In this document: piece after piece, positions 3,459-10,913 of the stretch
Layout: each line of letters starts with the position of its first letter
How positions within the stretch are numbered: position 1 is the stretch's first letter
Virus record (IMG/VR): IMGVR_UViG_3300013131_000024
Coordinates: 45,858 to 109,857 of that record
DNA: 64,000 nt
Reading direction: 5' to 3' (one strand)
Origin: a virus
Notes under the pieces: model-generated
Told to the model about the DNA's origin: nothing
Databases searched by the model: none
The model's input: only the letters and a program-made list of their open reading frames with translations
Made by a program: the position numbers and the translations under genes

Positions 3459-3545
3459 GGAGGTGTGTGCCGAGCGGCGAAGGCAAGTGACTGTAAATCA
3501 CCCACATCAGAAACACCGTAGGTTCGATTCCTACCGCCTCCACCA
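3459..3545 (+). tRNA. tRNA-Tyr(GTA)
   Basis: cloverleaf, long V arm, CCA. Confidence 0.95.
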
Positions 3546-3551
3546 AAATTT

Positions 3552-3626
3552 GGTCCTATAGTTTATCGGTTAGAATAATGGCCTGTCACGCCGTAGGGAC
3601 GAGTTCGATTCTCGTTGGGACCGCCA
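3552..3626 (+). tRNA. tRNA-Asp(GTC)
   Basis: cloverleaf, CCA. Confidence 0.95.
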
Positions 3627-3635
3627 AAGTTTTAT

Positions 3636-3713
3636 TCCGGGATACCGTTCTAGGTGAGGCGGGTCTGACTGTTAATCAGAAATAGATTGGTTCGAATCCA
3701 ATTCCCGGAGCCA
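3636..3713 (+). tRNA. tRNA-Asn(GTT), atypical D arm
   Basis: acceptor, anticodon and T arms; GCCA end. Confidence 0.9.
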
Positions 3714-3766
3714 TTTGAAAGGTAGAGTGATAAATAAATATGTAAAATATTTTAAGGCTCTACCAT

Positions 3767-4210
3767 ATGAATTATAAGGGAACAAAAGACAAGACTTATG
3801 TCTGTCAGCATTGTAAAACAGAGTTTGGTTTTAAAGGTTATAGTAGCAATCATAAATTTTGCAGTTTAGATTGTTCTTATGCTTATCAATCAGCTCGAAA
3901 AGAAAGTTTAAAAGAGCATCGATATCAAAAATGGTTATCCGGAAAAGATATTGGTGTTAAAAATCCTCGTAAATTAATTAGAGATTTTTTAATTATACGC
4001 GATGGATATAGATGTAGTTGTTGTGGAATTGATAGTTGGAATGGTAAAGAAATAACACTCTGGACAGATCATATCGACGGAGATGCTACTAATAATCACC
4101 CAACTAACTTTAGATTAATCTGTCCTAACTGCGATAGCCAATCAGATACGTTTGGCGGCAAAAATTACGGTAAAGGAAGAAAATCTAGAGGTTTACCACA
4201 ATATGGTTAA
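3767..4210 (+). CDS. HNH homing endonuclease
   Basis: CSCC...DHIDGDATNNHPTNFRLICPNC HNH motif; N-terminal CxxC/CSxxC zinc motif; free-standing in tRNA array. Confidence 0.9.
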   Translation: MNYKGTKDKTYVCQHCKTEFGFKGYSSNHKFCSLDCSYAYQSARKESLKEHRYQKWLSGKDIGVKNPRKLIRDFLIIRDGYRCSCCGIDSWNGKEITLWTDHIDGDATNNHPTNFRLICPNCDSQSDTFGGKNYGKGRKSRGLPQYG

Positions 4211-4221
4211 GTAAAATTAAT

Positions 4222-4296
4222 GCACCGTTCGTCTATCGGTTAGGACACCCGCCTTTCACGCAGGTAAGAGGAGTTCGATTCTCCTACGGTGTACCA
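4222..4296 (+). tRNA. tRNA-Glu(TTC)
   Basis: cloverleaf, CCA. Confidence 0.93.
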
Positions 4297-4303
4297 GTTT
4301 TAT

Positions 4304-4379
4304 GCGGCATTAGTACAGTTGGTAGTACATCTGCTTGCCAAGCAGAAGGTCACCAGTTCGAGCCTGGTATGCCGCTCCA
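4304..4379 (+). tRNA. tRNA-Gly(GCC)
   Basis: cloverleaf, TCCA. Confidence 0.95.
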
Positions 4380-4387
4380 AAGTTTTT

Positions 4388-4486
4388 GCCTCTGTAGCTT
4401 AATGGTAAAGAAGGGAGCTTATACCTCCCCAAAGCACAGGCCAGATAAGCCTGAGTGTGCAGGTTCGAGTCCTGCCAGAGGCACCA
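4388..4486 (+). tRNA. tRNA with TAT (Ile) anticodon and long variable arm
   Basis: GGGAG-CTTATAC-CTCCC anticodon arm; ~29 nt V region; 7/5 acceptor/T stems; ACCA. Confidence 0.85.
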
Positions 4487-4492
4487 GTTAAT

Positions 4493-4569
4493 GGCTCCGT
4501 AGTTCAGTCCGGCAGAACGTTGGTCTCCAAAACCAAATGTCGGTGGTTCAAATCCATCCGGGGTCGCCA
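4493..4569 (+). tRNA. tRNA-Trp(CCA)
   Basis: cloverleaf, CCA. Confidence 0.95.
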
Positions 4570-4575
4570 AATGAT

Positions 4576-4652
4576 GTGAGGGTGCCAGAGAGGCCTAATG
4601 GCGCAGTCTGCAAAACTGTTGTTCGTCGGTTCGAATCCGACTCCTCACTCCA
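4576..4652 (+). tRNA. tRNA-Cys(GCA)
   Basis: cloverleaf, TCCA. Confidence 0.95.
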
Positions 4653-4656
4653 GAAT

Positions 4657-4737
4657 GCCCCTATGGCCAAATTGGTAAAGGCGGCTCTCTCAAAAGGAGT
4701 GTCATAACTATCGGTTCGAATCCGATTAGGGGCACCA
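4657..4737 (+). tRNA. tRNA-Leu(CAA), short V arm
   Basis: cloverleaf, ACCA. Confidence 0.9.
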
Positions 4738-4745
4738 AAGATTAT

Positions 4746-4835
4746 GGAAGTGTGGCAGAGCCCGGCTTAATGCACCTGTCTTGAAAACAGACGATCCGAA
4801 AGGGTCCGTGAGTTCGAATCTCACCGCTTCCACCA
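4746..4835 (+). tRNA. tRNA-Ser(TGA)
   Basis: cloverleaf, long V arm. Confidence 0.95.
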
Positions 4836-4839
4836 AATT

Positions 4840-4913
4840 GCCCGGATAGTTAAATGGTATAACGGTCGCTTGATAAGCGATTATTCCAAGTTCAATTCTT
4901 GGTCTGGGCACCA
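4840..4913 (+). tRNA. tRNA-Ile(GAT)
   Basis: cloverleaf, ACCA. Confidence 0.93.
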
Positions 4914-5047
4914 ACCTTAAGGAGAACGCAAAATGGGGCGGTCGCAGTTTTACTCTTGCTGGTAGTATTGATATATTATATTGACAAAAATTTAAAATAG
5001 GAGAATGTTATGGAAAGTGATAAATCTGACAAAGGTCCCAAACCTTT

Positions 5048-5122
5048 GGGGGTGTGGTGAAATGGTATCACAGCAGACTTTTAATCTGCCAATTTCGGGT
5101 TCGAGTCCCGGCGCCCCTACCA
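5048..5122 (+). tRNA. tRNA-Lys(TTT)
   Basis: cloverleaf, ACCA. Confidence 0.93.
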
Positions 5123-5188
5123 TATAAAAACACATTCTCTGCTGGGCATGAATCAGATTCTCTAGCGGGTATGAATGTGTTTCTATAT

Positions 5189-5263
5189 GGTAATGTAGCA
5201 TAACGGTAGTGCAGCACCTTCATACGGTGCCCAGTGAAAGTTCGACTCTTTCCATTACCACCA
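5189..5263 (+). tRNA. tRNA-Met(CAT), elongator (Ile2 not excluded)
   Basis: cloverleaf, CAT anticodon. Confidence 0.9.
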
Positions 5264-5278
5264 GGATTAAATAAGTGT

Positions 5279-5524
5279 ATGAAAGAGCTACTGAAAAATC
5301 TGCCGCAGCTATTGGCTGCGATGCCAGAGCTAGTAAAGTACTTAAAATACATTCCAATCCTCATGATCCTCGCGGGCCTTGGCTACGGAGTAGTCTACTT
5401 CGTCCAGAATCGCAAGGATCCATATCAATGCGTTAACAATCACGTCTTTGAACAGTTGAGATTAGACAGCGATGTCTATGTGTTCAAAGGCGGAACTTGT
5501 ATCGATGCCAAAGATTTAAAATAA
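5279..5524 (+). CDS. small membrane protein
   Basis: hydrophobic segment IPILMILAGLGYGVVYFV; TAAATA 5 nt upstream of ATG. Confidence 0.75.
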   Translation: MKELLKNLPQLLAAMPELVKYLKYIPILMILAGLGYGVVYFVQNRKDPYQCVNNHVFEQLRLDSDVYVFKGGTCIDAKDLK

Positions 5525-5529
5525 ACTGT

Positions 5530-5603
5530 TGGGGTGTAGTGTAATGGTAACACCACAGACTTTGACTCTGTAATTCTAGGTTCGAGCCCTAGCACCCCTG
5601 CCA
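5530..5603 (+). tRNA. tRNA-Gln(TTG)
   Basis: cloverleaf, GCCA. Confidence 0.93.
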
Positions 5604-5604
5604 T

Positions 5605-5678
5605 GCTCTTATAGTTAAATGGCAGAACACATCCTTGGTAAGGATGCGATACAAGTTCGATTCTTGTTAGGAGCACCA
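5605..5678 (+). tRNA. tRNA-Thr(GGT)
   Basis: cloverleaf, CCA. Confidence 0.95.
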
Positions 5679-5682
5679 TATT

Positions 5683-5757
5683 CGGCCTGTAGCTCAGTGG
5701 AAGAGTTCTGGTCTTCGAAACCAGCAGTCGGGAGTTCGAATCTCTCCAGGCCGGCCA
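5683..5757 (+). tRNA. tRNA-Arg(TCG)
   Basis: cloverleaf, GCCA. Confidence 0.93.
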
Positions 5758-5772
5758 TTTAAGGAGAAAACT

Positions 5773-5979
5773 ATGAAACCAACTTTATTCAAGAATCGTT
5801 TCAATAACGAGCGTTTTATCTGCGACAACCCTCGCTTGACCGAAAACATCGACGGTGTTGAATATGTTGTGGTCCATCGTCCTAATGAGCATCGTGAATT
5901 TAAAATGCGTCGTGATGCACTAGAAAAAATTAATGCGCCTGTAGCTCAGTCGGACCAGAGCACTACGCTACGAACGTAG
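5773..5979 (+). CDS. hypothetical protein whose 3' end runs into tRNA-Arg(ACG)
   Basis: TAAGGAG SD; 68 aa. Confidence 0.7.
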   Translation: MKPTLFKNRFNNERFICDNPRLTENIDGVEYVVVHRPNEHREFKMRRDALEKINAPVAQSDQSTTLRT

Positions 5980-6012
5980 GGGTCGGAGGTTCGAATCCTT
6001 CCAGGCGTGCCA
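5935..6012 (+). tRNA. tRNA-Arg(ACG)
   Basis: cloverleaf, GCCA. Confidence 0.95.
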
Positions 6013-6018
6013 AACAAT

Positions 6019-6094
6019 GGTGTCCTTAATGTAGTGGCCTGCATACTAGTCTGTGAAACTGGAAGTACCGGATCGATACCGGTAGGACACCCCA
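6019..6094 (+). tRNA. tRNA-His(GTG)
   Basis: G-1/C73 pair; GTG anticodon; atypical T loop ATCGATA. Confidence 0.9.
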
Positions 6095-6103
6095 AAAGAA
6101 CAA

Positions 6104-7042
6104 TTAAAGATTTAAACAAAATTCTATTCGAATTTCTTTGTTGATATGAGATACAAACAATTCATGTATATTAGAGGGCGGATCAAGTATTGTTCCTAAA
6201 GGTAGCTCTAACGGTAAATTACTTGGCAATCTTTCGTAAGATTTACACCACGATTGAAATCTTTTACTTGCATATAATCGTTTTCTTGTATAATCTATAT
6301 CTATGGTAATACCGCCATTAGATCCGAGACGTCCTGTACAATCAAACTCGTTAGGATTATCTTCATCGTAAAATGATCGAAGAACACTTTTACCTAGAAT
6401 GGATTGATCTAACAGCACCAAGTATTGATAAACTGAATATTTTTCATAATCATAATTTGCCAAAAAATCTTCTTGATCAAATTCTAACCAATTGTCAAAT
6501 TGCAAATATCTATCAGTGGGCGTTATGTCAAAACTGGTAAATGGATATTTGGTTAAAGCATAATTTTTATTATCTGTAATAGTAATTTTTTCTAAAAGAT
6601 GAACTGAATCATTGATTAAATTTATCAAGGAAAACCATTGATTATAATCTATGAATTCTGGAATTGTGAATTTAGAATTATATACATTTTCCACAGATTT
6701 ATTTAGGTGCAGAGTATCTCTAGCGAATAAAGCATTGTAAACAAAGAATCTGTGTAATTCATTTAGAATATTTTGATCGTAATTAAATTCTGTGGGAATC
6801 GTAGTAGGAAATTTTAAACCAAATCTTTCTAATTCTGATAAGGCAAATTGTATAAACTTCCAAGATTGTATAATTTGAGATTCGTGTATATAATATTCTT
6901 CTAATGATGCAAAATCTTTTTTACATTCATAAGATTGTTTTTTGCTATTAAAAAAATTAAACCATTTAAAATGCACTTTGTGATCTGTGAATATTCGAAT
7001 CGCAATGTGTTGATCATTAAGAAAATGTAATTTTAAAAACAT
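6104..7042 (-). CDS. hypothetical AT-rich protein, antisense within tRNA array
   Basis: 312 aa ORF; TAAATA 4 nt before ATG. Confidence 0.8.
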   Translation of the reverse strand: MFLKLHFLNDQHIAIRIFTDHKVHFKWFNFFNSKKQSYECKKDFASLEEYYIHESQIIQSWKFIQFALSELERFGLKFPTTIPTEFNYDQNILNELHRFFVYNALFARDTLHLNKSVENVYNSKFTIPEFIDYNQWFSLINLINDSVHLLEKITITDNKNYALTKYPFTSFDITPTDRYLQFDNWLEFDQEDFLANYDYEKYSVYQYLVLLDQSILGKSVLRSFYDEDNPNEFDCTGRLGSNGGITIDIDYTRKRLYASKRFQSWCKSYERLPSNLPLELPLGTILDPPSNIHELFVSHINKEIRIEFCLNL

Positions 7043-7065
7043 AAATTATTTAATATCATCGCTTC

Positions 7066-7141
7066 GCCAACTTAGCTGATGTGGTCATAGCGGCGGTCTG
7101 AAGAACCGTGGAAAGACGTTCGATTCGTCTAGTTGGCACCA
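7066..7141 (+). tRNA. tRNA-Phe(GAA)
   Basis: cloverleaf, CCA. Confidence 0.95.
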
Positions 7142-7144
7142 CAT

Positions 7145-7222
7145 GCGGATGTGATGGAATTTGGTATACATATCAGACTTAAAATCTGAGTTCTGAGGGT
7201 TCGAATCCCTCCATCCGCACCA
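7145..7222 (+). tRNA. tRNA-Leu(TAA), no long V arm
   Basis: Leu-type D loop; 5-nt V loop. Confidence 0.9.
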
Positions 7223-7227
7223 AACAT

Positions 7228-7299
7228 GCCTCTGCCGATGGAGCGGTGCCAGGTCTTCTAAACCAGGTTATGGGAGTTCGAATCTCTCCAGAGGCGCCA
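7228..7299 (+). tRNA. tRNA-Arg(TCT), reduced D arm
   Basis: acceptor and T arm canonical; CTTCTAA loop. Confidence 0.8.
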
Positions 7300-7307
7300 T
7301 ATATCAG

Positions 7308-7336
7308 TTGACAAAGCATAGAATAGACTATATAAT
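7308..7336 (+). promoter_or_regulatory. sigma70 consensus promoter
   Basis: TTGACA-17-TATAAT. Confidence 0.85.
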
Positions 7337-7369
7337 ATACTTTGTTCATTAAAAATTTCTAGTTGTTAT

Positions 7370-7397
7370 GCCCCGGTGGTGGAATGGTAGACACGCT
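7370..7397 (+). pseudogene. 5' remnant of a tRNA-Leu (acceptor strand + D arm)
   Basis: GCCCCGG-TG-GTGGAATGGTAGACAC-GCT, then stops abruptly. Confidence 0.75.
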
Positions 7398-7425
7398 TTT
7401 CTGTGTGTTTAGCATAAATAAATGT

Positions 7426-7869
7426 ATGAAAAACATTTATGAATACATTTCACTCCCGAGGGTTGAAAGACAGTCTCATCTCAAATTGGATGAGCCGTGT
7501 CTAGAAAGAGGAGCAGGTAGTTATTATTTCAAAGGGCTTTTAGCTCATTGTTTAGATACTACAGTTCCTACAGGACATAAGATACATTTATGTCATGCTT
7601 GTCATAACGGTGCTTGTGGTAATCCCAATCATATGTATTGGGGTACAGCACAAGAAAATCGTTTAGATCAAGTTGAAAATAACGGCAAAACAATTTGGGA
7701 GAGAACTGTCGAAAAACACGGCTTAGAAAAAGCGAAAGCTATGAACAAACGTGTTGGAAATAAAAATGGTTCTGGCAATAAGGGTAAACCTAAAAGCGAG
7801 GAACATAAAGCAAAAATTGCCGCAAACCGTAAAGGTGGGCGACAAAAGAAACATGCGGACGTGATGTAA
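7426..7869 (+). CDS. HNH/zinc-binding-loop homing endonuclease with NUMOD3-like motif
   Basis: HLCHACHNGACGNPNHMYWGTAQENRLD; GKPKSEEHKAKIA. Confidence 0.85.
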   Translation: MKNIYEYISLPRVERQSHLKLDEPCLERGAGSYYFKGLLAHCLDTTVPTGHKIHLCHACHNGACGNPNHMYWGTAQENRLDQVENNGKTIWERTVEKHGLEKAKAMNKRVGNKNGSGNKGKPKSEEHKAKIAANRKGGRQKKHADVM

Positions 7870-7938
7870 CTGGTAGCCATGCGAGTCTTAGAAGCTCGTG
7901 CCTTGTGCGTGTGAGTTCGAGTCTCACCGTCCGCACCA
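7855..7938 (+). tRNA. tRNA-Leu(TAG)
   Basis: cloverleaf with V arm, ACCA; overlaps endonuclease stop codon. Confidence 0.93.
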
Positions 7939-7958
7939 AGTTTGCCCTATGGACTTAA

Positions 7959-7974
7959 CCGACCTGGGGCACCA
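7959..7974 (+). pseudogene. 3' remnant of the disrupted tRNA-Leu
   Basis: CCGAC-CTGGGGC-ACCA; CTGGGGC pairs with GCCCCGG at 7370. Confidence 0.7.
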
Positions 7975-8139
7975 TTAAAAAATAGCATTAGCGGGTATCG
8001 CTTGTGGACGCACAGGCTCACGAAGATTAGGGCCATCTACTTCTTCTGAAAAAACCGTGGACAATGGCTTATGAGGAGAATCGAACTCCACTCAGAAATC
8101 CGTCCCATCCCGTAGGGTGTAATGTTATTCTTTAATGGT
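7971..8139 (+). ncRNA. candidate small structured RNA closed by ~19-bp stem
   Basis: ACCATTAAA-A-AATAGCATTA pairs with TAATGTTATT-C-TTTAATGGT; GC-richer non-coding interior. Confidence 0.5.
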
Positions 8140-8149
8140 AAAGTTTTTT

Positions 8150-8228
8150 CCGGGTGTAGCTTAGTCTGGCTTAAAGCGCCTGCTTTGGGAGCAGGAGATC
8201 GTGAGTTCGAATCCCACTTCCCGGACCA
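8150..8228 (+). tRNA. tRNA-Pro(TGG)
   Basis: cloverleaf, ACCA. Confidence 0.92.
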
Positions 8229-8234
8229 GTAAAT

Positions 8235-8309
8235 GCATCGTTAGTTCAGCGGTAGAACGTCGTCCTTACAAGGCGAATGTCAGTGGTTCGACTCCATTAC
8301 GATGCACCA
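8235..8309 (+). tRNA. tRNA-Val(TAC)
   Basis: cloverleaf, ACCA. Confidence 0.95.
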
Positions 8310-8314
8310 ATGCC

Positions 8315-8406
8315 GGAAGGATGGCTGAGAGGCTTAAGGCAGCAGGTTGCTAACCTGTCGATTCGGGTAACTGGGTCCGAGGGTTCGAATCCCTCTTCTT
8401 CCACCA
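8315..8406 (+). tRNA. tRNA-Ser(GCT)
   Basis: cloverleaf, long V arm. Confidence 0.95.
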
Positions 8407-8425
8407 ATTTTAAAAAGGAAACTAA

Positions 8426-8605
8426 ATGTTAAGACCAACCGCAAATTACAAGATGTCCAAACCTACCAAAACTATGTTGGCATCGAGAAGATTTAATTCA
8501 GAAACACAAAGACATGACTGGAAAAGATCTATGATTCAGGCTGAATTAGCTGCTCTTATTCAACCTAAAAGAGAAAAAGGTCGTCGAGAGAACAAAGGTG
8601 AATAA
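8426..8605 (+). CDS. 59 aa basic hypothetical protein (MLRPTANYKMSK...)
   Basis: AAGGA SD; open frame; below ORF-track cutoff. Confidence 0.7.
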   Translation: MLRPTANYKMSKPTKTMLASRRFNSETQRHDWKRSMIQAELAALIQPKREKGRRENKGE

Positions 8606-8606
8606 C

Positions 8607-8789
8607 ATGGAAGATTCTCAAAATATTAAAAGAACCGGAACTTGTGGTTGTGGGCGATCACCAACTGGTGATTGTATTGGTTGGCACAGTCTATCTGAAG
8701 ATATGTATCAACATCAAAAACTGCTTTGGATAGAAGAAGAAATGCGTAAAGATCAGGAAGCAGCACACTTAAAGGAGACTGGCAGATGA
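8607..8789 (+). CDS. CDGSH-like iron-sulfur domain small protein
   Basis: CGCGRSPTGDCIGWH resembles the CDGSH motif C-x-C-x2-S-x4/5-C-D-G-x-H. Confidence 0.6.
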   Translation: MEDSQNIKRTGTCGCGRSPTGDCIGWHSLSEDMYQHQKLLWIEEEMRKDQEAAHLKETGR

Positions 8790-8983
8790 GAGATAAACTG
8801 ATAGATGCATTGAGAGTTCATTTTGCAGGTAATTTGTTAAAACATAAAATGAATGTAGAAGTTATGTTAAATAATCCAATCGCAATCCATGATCATACTG
8901 ATTGGATGACTGCTATCGAATCGGAGATTGCACAAATAGCAGAATACGAAGATAAATTAGAAGTATTGAATAAACATTTTTAA
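8786..8983 (+). CDS. hypothetical phage protein
   Basis: ATGA overlap; 65 aa. Confidence 0.75.
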   Translation: MRDKLIDALRVHFAGNLLKHKMNVEVMLNNPIAIHDHTDWMTAIESEIAQIAEYEDKLEVLNKHF

Positions 8984-8986
8984 ATT

Positions 8987-9060
8987 GGGGGATTAGTTAA
9001 ATGGGATAACATCGGCTTTGCAAGCCGAGATTGAGAGTTCGATTCTCTCATCCTCCACCA
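8987..9060 (+). tRNA. tRNA-Ala(TGC)
   Basis: G3.U70 pair; cloverleaf. Confidence 0.95.
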
Positions 9061-9064
9061 ATAT

Positions 9065-9138
9065 GCCCTTTTAGTATAATGGTAATACAGTGGATTTGTA
9101 ATCCTCTGATGGCAGTTCGATTCTGTCAAGGGGCACCA
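9065..9138 (+). tRNA. tRNA-Thr(TGT)
   Basis: cloverleaf, CCA. Confidence 0.93.
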
Positions 9139-9154
9139 AGATTACCAAAATGTC

Positions 9155-9182
9155 TTGACACAGACACAAAACAGTGTATAAT
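9155..9182 (+). promoter_or_regulatory. sigma70-type promoter
   Basis: TTGACA-16-TATAAT. Confidence 0.75.
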
Positions 9183-9189
9183 AAGTTTT

Positions 9190-9458
9190 GTTGTGTAGCA
9201 ATACACAACCGGTGAAGTGAAAGGTAGATGAGGATAGACGCCTAGTATGGTTTCATACCATACGAACTTATCTGGCAAAGACGACTTGAAAACGTCTCCG
9301 TGCTTGAGTGAGCTGATCCAAATATCTTTAACTAGACTGTCAATTGCTGATCGGAAATATTCAGGTCTCTGTAGCCTGTCTATTGCACGTTGTCCAGACC
9401 GACGATATCGCACAATAGGTCTTGTCAATTGTCCGGTCTATTACTTGACCTTTCATCG
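9190..9458 (+). ncRNA. candidate ~270-nt structured RNA / long 5' leader
   Basis: GNRA-capped 8-bp hairpin; long-range GTGAAAGGT/ACCTTTCAT and ATAGAC/GTCTAT; internal hairpins; repeated GTCWATT. Confidence 0.55.
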
Positions 9459-9492
9459 ATCCGTCATTATAATTGTAAAAAGAGAGACACAA

Positions 9493-10065
9493 ATGAATAT
9501 CACACTACGCAAAGCAAATGCAGTACAAAACAGCATCAATGATGCACTAAAAAACATTAAGGTTGATCTTAATGTTGAGATTAACGAGTTTCAAAATATC
9601 GAAGATGTTATTGGCAAAGCCAATAACACTTTGGTCGAAAATGATGCACGTCGTCAAAAGTTGACTATGGCTTTGTACAATATCCGTGCTTTAGTAGGTA
9701 CTGCAAATGCTGCGAGTGGAATTGACACTGCGCTGGCCAAGGCAGCGTTCATCGATAAACGTATTGGCCAATTAGAGCAATTGGCGAGCTCTACTGAGAT
9801 GACTTCTTTAGAAATCATTAAAGGCAAGATTGAAAAGATCAAAAGTCTCAAGGACGAAGCTCGTAGCCGTATCTATGGCTATGGAGACACGGTAACAACT
9901 TCTGTTCTCAGCAAAGAACAGATCGCACAGGCCAAATCAGAAATCCTTAATCTGAAAAAGCAAAAGCAAAAGCTCAACGATGAGATCCTTGAGCTGAATA
10001 TCAAAACCGATATTCCATTATCAGATGATACTGTAGAATTACTACAAACAGAAGGATTACTATGA
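9493..10065 (+). CDS. coiled-coil hypothetical phage protein (MNITLRKANAVQ...)
   Basis: coding-like composition from ATG 9493; the upstream in-frame extension overlaps structured RNA. Confidence 0.8.
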   Translation: MNITLRKANAVQNSINDALKNIKVDLNVEINEFQNIEDVIGKANNTLVENDARRQKLTMALYNIRALVGTANAASGIDTALAKAAFIDKRIGQLEQLASSTEMTSLEIIKGKIEKIKSLKDEARSRIYGYGDTVTTSVLSKEQIAQAKSEILNLKKQKQKLNDEILELNIKTDIPLSDDTVELLQTEGLL

Positions 10066-10071
10066 TATTGC

Positions 10072-10145
10072 CGCGGGTTATAGAAAAGGCATCTTACCAG
10101 TCTCATAAGCTGGAGTTGGGGGTTCGAGTCCCTCACCCGCAACCA
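10072..10145 (+). tRNA. tRNA-Met(CAT), initiator-like
   Basis: C1.A72 mismatch; CAT anticodon; lacks the three anticodon-stem G-C pairs. Confidence 0.85.
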
Positions 10146-10174
10146 GTTATAGATAAAGATACTTATTTGAATAA

Positions 10175-10663
10175 ATGAATATCGCAATAATAATCGATTG
10201 TTGGAAAGATACACCAACTACATTGCATCATATAATTCTCTCTAAAATATTTAGATCGACAAGATTCGTTTATTTAAATATTAAGAAATTTTTAAGTTCA
10301 GATTTAATAGATGTAATAATTATTTCTTCCTACGACGACAAAGATACTACTCCTACTATTTTAAACATAGACAAGAAAAAATTCTTTTTTTTACACGAAG
10401 AACAATTAATAGAATTTTTAAAAAATAATTCAGTTAAAAATATCTATATGTGTGGTTGTGCCTGGGATAGTTGTGTAAGAGATCGTCCTCTTGGTTATTT
10501 GAATGTCTATAAAATTATTAATTCATTGAACTTAGATATTAGTGTTTTAGTAAAATATAACTGTGTTAAAAACTTAGATGACACATATTTTGTAAAATCA
10601 AAAAATGATGACTGGGTAAAAACCAGTGTAAAAAATATTTTTAAATACTATCCAAAATGTTAA
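10175..10663 (+). CDS. hypothetical AT-rich protein (isochorismatase-like fold possible)
   Basis: IIIDCW...YMCGCAWDSCVRD resembles cysteine-hydrolase motifs. Confidence 0.65.
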   Translation: MNIAIIIDCWKDTPTTLHHIILSKIFRSTRFVYLNIKKFLSSDLIDVIIISSYDDKDTTPTILNIDKKKFFFLHEEQLIEFLKNNSVKNIYMCGCAWDSCVRDRPLGYLNVYKIINSLNLDISVLVKYNCVKNLDDTYFVKSKNDDWVKTSVKNIFKYYPKC

Positions 10664-10670
10664 AGAATAT

Positions 10671-10740
10671 GTGGGAGTAGCTCGGTTGGTAGAGCATTTG
10701 CCTTTCAAGCAAGATGTCGTGAGTTCAAGTCTCGCAACCA
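10671..10740 (+). pseudogene. degenerate copy of tRNA-Gly(TCC) with TTC anticodon and no 3' acceptor strand
   Basis: strong similarity to 10838-10913; ends in CGCAACCA. Confidence 0.75.
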
Positions 10741-10745
10741 ATTAG

Positions 10746-10820
10746 CTCGCTGTAGTTCAATGGACAGAACGATTCTCTCCTAAAGAATAAATCCAGGTTC
10801 GATTCCCGGTGGCGAGGCCA
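10746..10820 (+). tRNA. tRNA-Arg(CCT)
   Basis: cloverleaf, GCCA. Confidence 0.93.
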
Positions 10821-10837
10821 GTGTTAAATAGTTTTAT

Positions 10838-10913
10838 GCGGGTGTAGCTCAGTTGGTAGAGCACTTGCCTTCCAAGCAAGATGTCGAGAGTTCGAGACTC
10901 TTCGCCCGCTCCA
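10838..10913 (+). tRNA. tRNA-Gly(TCC)
   Basis: cloverleaf, TCCA. Confidence 0.95.

Follow-up and report, generated by a model that had tools for sequence, protein, structure and literature searches.

The core of a tRNA-Leu(TAG) gene in the tRNA array of an uncultured giant phage has probably been replaced by a free-standing homing-endonuclease gene that is fused to a tRNA-Leu(TAG) of its own. Mobile endonuclease genes usually spare their carrier by residing in self-splicing introns or inteins, or by occupying an intergenic position. In the case of an RNA gene, the cassette family described here would follow a third route, in which the target is destroyed and a working, presumably uncuttable, copy of it is delivered. 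The sequences suggest that a useful gene can be invaded in this manner without splicing and without functional cost to the carrier, and the family would then be a naturally occurring model for gene drives of the replacement type. It could also explain some of the tRNA gene fragments, as well as the turnover of alleles, in phage tRNA arrays, and it points to small enzymes that probably recognize tRNA-gene sequences. One of its members, ORF169 of the cultured phage RsoM2USA, makes the family testable.

The interrupted tRNA-Leu(TAG) locus

The phage was sampled from lake water and is represented in IMG/VR by a contig of 109,857 bp; as a contig of this length is estimated to be ~31% complete, the phage must be a giant one. 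The window, i.e. the whole stretch of DNA that was analysed, is the final 64 kb of this contig and contains an array of 29 tRNA genes within positions 3459–10913, as called by ARAGORN. Inside this array, at 7370–7974, two pieces of a tRNA-Leu(TAG) gene, a head of 28 nt and a tail of 12 nt, were found on either side of an insert of 565 nt, which carries the gene for a predicted His-Me-finger (HNH-type) endonuclease of 147 amino acids and a complete, divergent tRNA-Leu(TAG) (Table 1). The head, GCCCCGGTGGTGGAATGGTAGACACGCT, comprises the acceptor strand, the D arm and bases 1–2 of the anticodon stem. The putative sigma-70-type promoter lies inside the tRNA array, now upstream of the remnant and the cassette, and faces the whole unit; a similar element, TTGACA...TATACT, occupies the equivalent place in a relative with an intact gene (L050, alignment A1). 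The tRNA-Arg(TCT) that ARAGORN calls at 7228–7299 is a short form of 72 nt, and its 24.3 bits with the Rfam tRNA model fall short of the threshold, which is 29.

Table 1 Features of the tRNA-Leu(TAG) locus, in window coordinates
Feature	Position	Strand	Evidence
Putative sigma-70-type promoter of the resident tRNA-Leu locus, TTGACA-17-TATAAT	7308..7336	+	Perfect consensus (12/12)
5′ remnant of the resident tRNA-Leu(TAG)	7370..7397	+	28/28 identical to the intact alleles of L050, L019 and L043
Inverted repeat/hairpin, conserved	7386..7413	+	Pairing over 16 loci; MFE fold
565-nt insert, replaces 44 nt of the resident gene	7398..7962	+	Alignment A1; run X1 contig joining 7393 to 7963
A+T box CATAAATAA, just 5′ of the start codon; candidate phage late-type promoter	7413..7421	+	TAAATA invariant in alignment A2
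Endonuclease gene, 147 aa, NUMOD3-like C-terminal motif	7426..7869	+	PHROG, Pfam, family profile, structure model
Cassette tRNA-Leu(TAG)	7855..7938	+	ARAGORN; Rfam tRNA 50.3 bits
CCA-ended microhelix, 31 nt	7944..7974	+	Final 12 nt identical to intact alleles; fold energy
3′ remnant of the resident tRNA-Leu, CCTGGGGCACCA	7963..7974	+	12/12 identical to the 3′ end of intact alleles

Uninterrupted alleles and the reality of the arrangement

An initial annotation of this DNA, made from the letters alone, had read 7370–7397 as the 5′ part of a tRNA-Leu and had described a 3′ remnant, CCGAC-CTGGGGC-ACCA; comparison with intact tRNA-Leu(TAG) genes bore out both, with identity over all 28 nt of the former and over 7963–7974 for the latter. 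Exact matches to nt 1–25 of the 5′ remnant were found in 59 IMG/VR contigs, nearly all of them within whole tRNA-Leu genes that end in CCTGGGGCACCA. When the neighbourhood of the locus was compared with these 59 contigs by BLAST, L050 was found to have a whole tRNA-Leu gene with both flanks in common with the window, L008, L055, L024 and L041 a whole gene with the upstream flank in common, and L019, L039, L043, L044 and L059 a whole gene with the downstream flank in common, including a non-coding stretch of ~170 nt. The uninterrupted allele on which the earlier reading depended is thus represented by L050 and by nine relatives that match on one flank, and the presence or absence of the cassette at this same site is polymorphic among related genomes. 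In alignment A1 only the first 28 and the last 12 nt of the 84-nt gene of the relatives have a counterpart at the window locus; the intervening 44 nt, which are absent there, correspond to the anticodon and variable arms plus the 5′ half of the T arm. These data support the proposal that the middle of the resident gene was replaced by the insert, 565 nt having taken the place of 44 nt. Because this exchange is seen in an alignment with syntenic relatives, and because the tRNA-Leu fragments found upstream of homologous enzyme genes score above controls (see below), chance can be excluded as its origin.

The non-coding stretch itself, at 7975–8141, lies directly 3′ of the locus and is 80–88% conserved in six relatives (L019, L039, L043, L044, L050 and L059), in which it stands downstream of the intact tRNA. 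A search of this stretch against Rfam gave no match; it may be a stable RNA that is processed out of the tRNA transcript.

As the initial annotation had pointed out, the acceptor strands of the two remnants can pair, and this could indicate an intron-like or split tRNA, in which the resident tRNA-Leu would be regenerated at the RNA level, either by excision of the insert or by joining of the remnants. However, such pairing follows from the common origin of the two remnants from one gene, and splicing could not restore the resident gene, which has lost its anticodon and variable arms together with half of its T arm. Rfam finds tRNAs only, and no intron family, at 6900–8500, and the locus does not have the make-up of a tRNA intron, i.e. 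two complete exons and a ribozyme core or splice motif. None of the contigs of an RNA-library run joins 7397 to 7963, a result that has no bearing on splicing either way; those recovered, which may stem from DNA carry-over, cover the 5′ remnant with the enzyme gene, and the end of the enzyme gene with the tRNA. We consider a split tRNA extremely improbable, and the contention that the cassette does without splicing is upheld by the missing 44 nt and by the Rfam result.

The arrangement might also be a chimera created when two phage strains were assembled together across the repeats of the tRNA region, given that tRNA arrays are prone to mis-assembly and that several related strains are present in the sample. 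Contigs from an independent 2025 freshwater study nevertheless cover 7272–7900 and 7874–7974 in an order identical with that of the window, the same architecture is found in more than 30 separate contigs, and the genome of a cultured phage has it too, all of which leaves the likelihood of a chimera close to nil. In the probable source sample a second contig, the match of which is known from its two sides alone, skips 7393–7963 at a similar depth, 27 compared with 34 (run X1); a cassette-less relative thus seems to co-occur with the cassette form in the same lake sample.

The cassette tRNA

The cassette tRNA-Leu(TAG) is 84 nt long, ends in GCACCA and scores 50.3 bits with the Rfam tRNA model, for which the threshold is 29. 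By its sequence it has the long variable arm, the Leu anticodon and the discriminator A73 of a class II tRNA-Leu. It overlaps the final 15 nt of the ORF, such that tRNA positions 13–15 (TAA), in the D-loop, are at the same time the stop codon of the endonuclease. An alignment with the resident-type allele gave 62/86 identical columns (72%) and 24/86 that differ; around the left junction 7/31 columns differ, and the two tRNAs have a block of 13 nt in the T arm in common. The earlier description of an intact but divergent tRNA-Leu lying over the stop codon was therefore accurate.

Since the cassette tRNA looks canonical and is the only tRNA-Leu(TAG) that ARAGORN finds in the array, functional replacement is plausible, i.e. 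the cassette tRNA could restore the tRNA-Leu(TAG) decoding that was lost. Its immunity to the enzyme is presumed from the architecture of the locus. The resident motif GGTAGACAC, tested as GGTA[GA]ACAC, was present in 1/31 cassette tRNAs and in 2/18 other tRNA-Leu genes of the same loci; this comparison, intended to indicate the target, did not show the motif to be significantly rarer in the cassette tRNAs (p = 0.55). The cassette tRNA of L083 retains this resident-type motif, and both observations speak against a clear contrast between cassette and resident-type tRNAs.

The endonuclease

The ORF starts at a conserved ATG at 7426, and not at the TTG at 7363, and ends with TAA at 7867–7869; it has its own start and stop, and no self-splicing intron or intein surrounds it. 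Its product matches the PHROG HNH endonuclease families with E = 2e-7, whereas the match to Pfam PF05551 is weak (18.8 bits, below the cut-off of 27). A profile of the family built from 30 homologues matches the active-site loop of I-PpoI, the nearest solved relative by sequence, with E = 7e-4, and the alignment places His57 opposite the catalytic His98 of I-PpoI and Asn78 opposite the metal-binding Asn119. His57, Asn78 and the Cys ligands C59 and C64 are invariant in the 30 homologues, and the family alignment has the conserved motif LCHACxNxxCxNPxHxYWGTxxEN. The AlphaFold model (pLDDT 79.7) contains a beta-beta-alpha element at residues 54–84, which is made up of strands 54–57 and 70–73 and a helix at 75–84, with pLDDT values of ~90 in this part. 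Foldseek gave no significant match for the model in the PDB; the best structural matches were I-PpoI (Z 4.4; VIA) and I-HmuI (Z 2.7), both of which are weak. The modelled beta-hairpin and helix, together with the catalytic His, the metal-binding Asn and the Cys residues, correspond to a His-Me finger, and the enzyme is predicted to contain a His-Me-finger (HNH-type) DNA-nuclease domain.

Near the C-terminus the motif GNKGKPKSEEHKxKI is nearly invariant in the family, and it is the basis of the NUMOD3 call. Pfam shows no NUMOD3 match in the endonuclease at E ≤ 1. Of the HNH/NUMOD3 enzyme proposed in the initial annotation, the HNH part is confirmed by the PHROG match (E = 2e-7) and by the I-PpoI loop, whereas for NUMOD3 there is a candidate motif that would fit but is undetected by Pfam. 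GIY-YIG-type ORFs of other phage contigs (L120, L124–L132 and L134), retrieved along with the homologues, contain one to several copies of the GKPKSEEHKxKI motif, and a DNA-binding module seems to be common to two nuclease families, the His-Me finger and GIY-YIG enzymes.

A family of enzyme–tRNA-Leu cassettes

A megablast search with 7000–8450 against cultured phages gave no match, and the distant mode returned generic tRNA matches only. In IMG/VR, by comparison, the homologue search returned 74 loci, of which 36 are distinct and full-length, including that of the window, and 35 could be evaluated. At 34 of the 35, with amino acid identities of 45–89%, a tRNA-Leu (TAG, TAA, AAG or CAA) begins at the enzyme stop or extends over it; the 34 include L115, where a tRNA-Gln lies between the enzyme stop and the tRNA-Leu. 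The ORF ends inside the tRNA at 26 of the 34 loci, and for 22 of these 26 the overlap is either 10 nt (TGA at tRNA positions 8–10) or 15 nt (TAA at positions 13–15). A long 5′ fragment of a tRNA-Leu precedes the ATG by 18–62 nt at 21/36 loci, these upstream fragments having scores of 18–28 compared with a maximum of 13 in 200 control windows, and ~10 loci have 3′ remnants that cannot be part of a whole tRNA. Enzymes of more than ~60% identity are associated with TAG-type tRNAs and remnants, and more distant ones mostly with TAA types; the family seems to have diversified along with the tRNA-Leu isoacceptors.

Enzymes that are 73–89% identical are found between neighbouring tRNA genes that differ from locus to locus, which is the signature of a mobile unit and sustains the earlier claim of mobility. 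Decayed copies occur at L117, L118 and L121–L123, where the last 39–64 codons only remain before a cassette-type tRNA-Leu. The cassette of the window appears, by its sequence context, to bear the marks of a homing gene: a polymorphic site, similar copies that are mobile, decayed copies and no intron.

A conflict module would also suit the strict association with a single tRNA identity and the D arm of the cassette tRNAs, which is altered systematically. In such a module the nuclease would attack the tRNA-Leu genes, or the tRNA-Leu itself, of the host or of competing phages, and the linked variant tRNA-Leu, as a resistant substitute, would allow the carrier to go on translating; phage tRNA loci are known counter-defence assets that are amplified by SegB (PMC13096335). 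However, the gene destroyed in the window is the phage's own, the predicted fold is that of a DNA nuclease, with a NUMOD3-like motif of the DNA-binding type that is common to GIY-YIG homing-type ORFs, and no matches suggest an RNase. We regard such a module as quite improbable and favour the homing endonuclease with its own tRNA-Leu.

The exceptions within the family are L069 and L141, with a tRNA upstream and none downstream, and the homologues of Citrobacter phage Ursula and Klebsiella phage K6, which have no linked tRNA-Leu. The protein database contains at least 490 clusters of the endonuclease family, all labelled as hypothetical. The matches in bacterial MAG bins proved to be further tRNA-array contigs like those above and provide no evidence that the family has a cellular home. 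At L117, L118 and L121–L123 the tRNA outlives the enzyme gene. At L145 a 92-nt gene at 1879–1970, called as tRNA-Ile(TAT), directly follows an endonuclease homologue in the place expected for tRNA-Leu; possibly this is a class II tRNA whose anticodon has changed.

The ends of the cassette

The left junction is uniform, lying after ...GACACGCT, at tRNA position 28, in the TAG types; the junction may, however, have travelled with the cassette and need not mark a cut site. The hairpin listed in Table 1 is formed across this junction: its left arm, GGTAGACACGC, comes from the D arm of the remnant, and its right arm, GTGTGTTTAGC, from the cassette. Over 16 loci 86% of the cells pair, compared with 22–54% with a slid partner, three pairs show compensatory changes, and the hairpin is present in the MFE fold with z = −3.3. 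Loci that are without the acceptor part of the remnant still retain the hairpin arm derived from the D arm. The 5′ fragment of the resident tRNA thus appears to have gained a second use, as part of a leader hairpin that is conserved. Downstream of the hairpin stands a conserved [C/T]ATAAATAA box, which is found in nearly all homologue leaders; in some members the A+T box stands 5 nt before the ATG and no ribosome-binding site is present, and in others a GGAG leader comes after the box. We infer that this is a putative promoter box of the T4-late kind. Two other candidates were discarded, namely TAGACA (7388) with TAGCAT as a −35/−10 pair, as the spacing varies from 16 to >27 nt among the homologues and the inverted repeat is what is kept, and a second hairpin around the start codon, which is seen in the fold but is not conserved across the family.

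At the right end there are two classes of junction, one with remnants that keep the T arm and the other with 12-nt remnants. The 12 nt of the 3′ remnant in the window form the end of the self-pairing microhelix, which is found after the cassette tRNAs of the window, L072 and L078 and nowhere else in IMG/VR, i.e. in three contigs, and which has fold energies of −11.6 to −14.3 kcal/mol. At L072 (~3530–3600; on the same contig as L135) two successive scars follow the cassette tRNA. The first of these, CCAGCCGCACCA, corresponds to the 3′ end of a cassette-type tRNA such as those of L061 and L079, and the second is the microhelix; this nested scar suggests serial overwriting of one cassette by another.

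As the sequence just beyond the two tRNA-derived ends shows synteny with relatives that lack the cassette, the recombination joints must lie within the tRNA-derived segments. Junctions in tRNA-derived sequence that is common to donor and recipient would be expected too if recombination of tRNA-Leu genes between co-infecting phages drove the movement by itself, with the endonuclease as a passenger, or cutting elsewhere, and the fragments as by-products of unequal recombination. The 13-nt T-arm block common to the cassette and resident tRNAs fits such a process, as does the lack of a significant contrast in the test of GGTAGACAC. However, the link between enzyme and tRNA-Leu, overlap included, is kept down to 45% identity, which would be hard to maintain unless the pair were under selection; tRNAs of other identities play no part, bar the one locus with an intervening tRNA-Gln; and the relics decay in the way that is typical of homing genes. 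Recombination with a passenger endonuclease is therefore an unlikely explanation, and movement by homing is the one that we adopt below.

Proposed mechanism

In a mixed infection the enzyme would cut or nick the resident-type tRNA-Leu gene of cassette-free phages near tRNA position 28, and the break would be repaired from the cassette-bearing genome with the short tRNA-derived ends as homology arms. The constancy of the left junction at this position, and the 7/31 columns around it at which the cassette tRNA differs, lend indirect support to such cleavage. Against the proposal, the potential arms are short, at 28 nt and 12–31 nt. The enzyme gene and the variant tRNA would be copied in together and the target destroyed, and the variant tRNA, presumed to stay uncut, would supply the lost decoding, so that there would be little cost to the carrier. 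Transcription of the unit would start at the resident promoter and perhaps also at the A+T box of the cassette. With the stop codon inside the tRNA, excision of the latter would leave the enzyme message without a stop; excision by RNase P would sever the message before that point, resulting in a low level of enzyme and thereby a built-in brake.

We put forward more tentatively, as a possibility that may well prove wrong, that the family is a widespread, self-limiting tRNA gene drive that swaps tRNA-Leu alleles among giant phages. Maturation of the tRNA and translation of the full enzyme would be mutually exclusive, the stump of the resident gene would have been recruited into the leader hairpin by the late-type box, and successive waves of cassettes would overwrite one another. 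If this were true, the spread of variant tRNA-Leu genes could help phages to escape from host defences that cleave tRNA.

Comparison with known systems

I-PpoI (His-Cys box) and I-HmuI (HNH) have a catalytic motif like that of the cassette enzyme, although the overall similarity is low and is confined to the nuclease core. Both ride in self-splicing group I introns, whereas the cassette enzyme has no intron and has a spare gene copy instead. Among free-standing phage enzymes, the insertion of MobE splits nrdA in Aeromonas phage Aeh1, the split halves of which still work together as protein pieces, and F-TflI, F-TflII and F-TflIV are HNH endonucleases of the tRNA region of phage T5. Like the cassette, these are free-standing phage HNH genes that are tolerated in or beside conserved genes or tRNA regions. 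To our knowledge, however, neither MobE nor the T5 F-Tfl genes carry a fused substitute gene, and we know of no report that the T5 tRNA genes are replaced.

The closest parallel among phage tRNA genes is SegB, a free-standing GIY-YIG homing endonuclease encoded in the tRNA gene cluster of phage T4, as the cassette enzyme is encoded, free-standing, among the tRNA genes of the window; its recognition site is in a tRNA gene (T-psi-C motif), and in mixed infections SegB drives its own inheritance, along with that of neighbouring tRNA genes, into rival phages (PMC2330249). The two enzymes belong to different nuclease families, the cassette enzyme being a predicted His-Me finger. Moreover, SegB lies between intact tRNA genes, is not fused to any of them, is not tied to a single tRNA identity and leaves no target stumps, whereas fusion, a single tRNA identity and target stumps are all found with the cassette.

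The mORFs of fungal mitochondria come with a foreign copy of the displaced gene end, e.g. in atp6 of Allomyces macrogynus and in atp6, atp9, cox2 and nad3 of Glomus (PMC3630166). Like the cassette, they insert in a useful gene, bring a divergent replacement and leave a native relic, all without splicing (PMC3630166). They differ in that the relic lies downstream, the genes are organelle protein genes and the C-terminal part only is supplied, in frame, whereas the cassette brings a whole RNA gene, has relics on both sides and resides in a phage. The hybrid structure of the cassette, with relics that are 28/28 and 12/12 identical to the alleles of relatives and a carried tRNA that is 72% identical, corresponds to that of the mORF hybrids, in what would be a likeness of design and not of descent. 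Endonuclease targeting of a tRNA gene is known from SegB, and a carried replacement from the mORFs. Our literature search found no description of a tRNA-Leu-fused endonuclease family that replaces resident tRNA genes.

A cultured member of the family

One cultured member of the family was found, namely ORF169 of the Ralstonia jumbo phage RsoM2USA (L139, record 108355–109997), which is annotated as hypothetical. It has the family leader (GGTAGACACAC and the A+T box) and a different C-terminal half, and its end is overlapped over 36 nt by a tRNA-Leu(TAA). The arrangement of ORF169 and tRNA-Leu(TAA) is not mentioned in the paper on this phage (PMC8504454). Within 108355–109997 of the RsoM2USA record ARAGORN calls a tRNA-Trp, a tRNA-Leu(TAG) and a tRNA-Leu(TAA), all three of which are additional to the feature table for that stretch.
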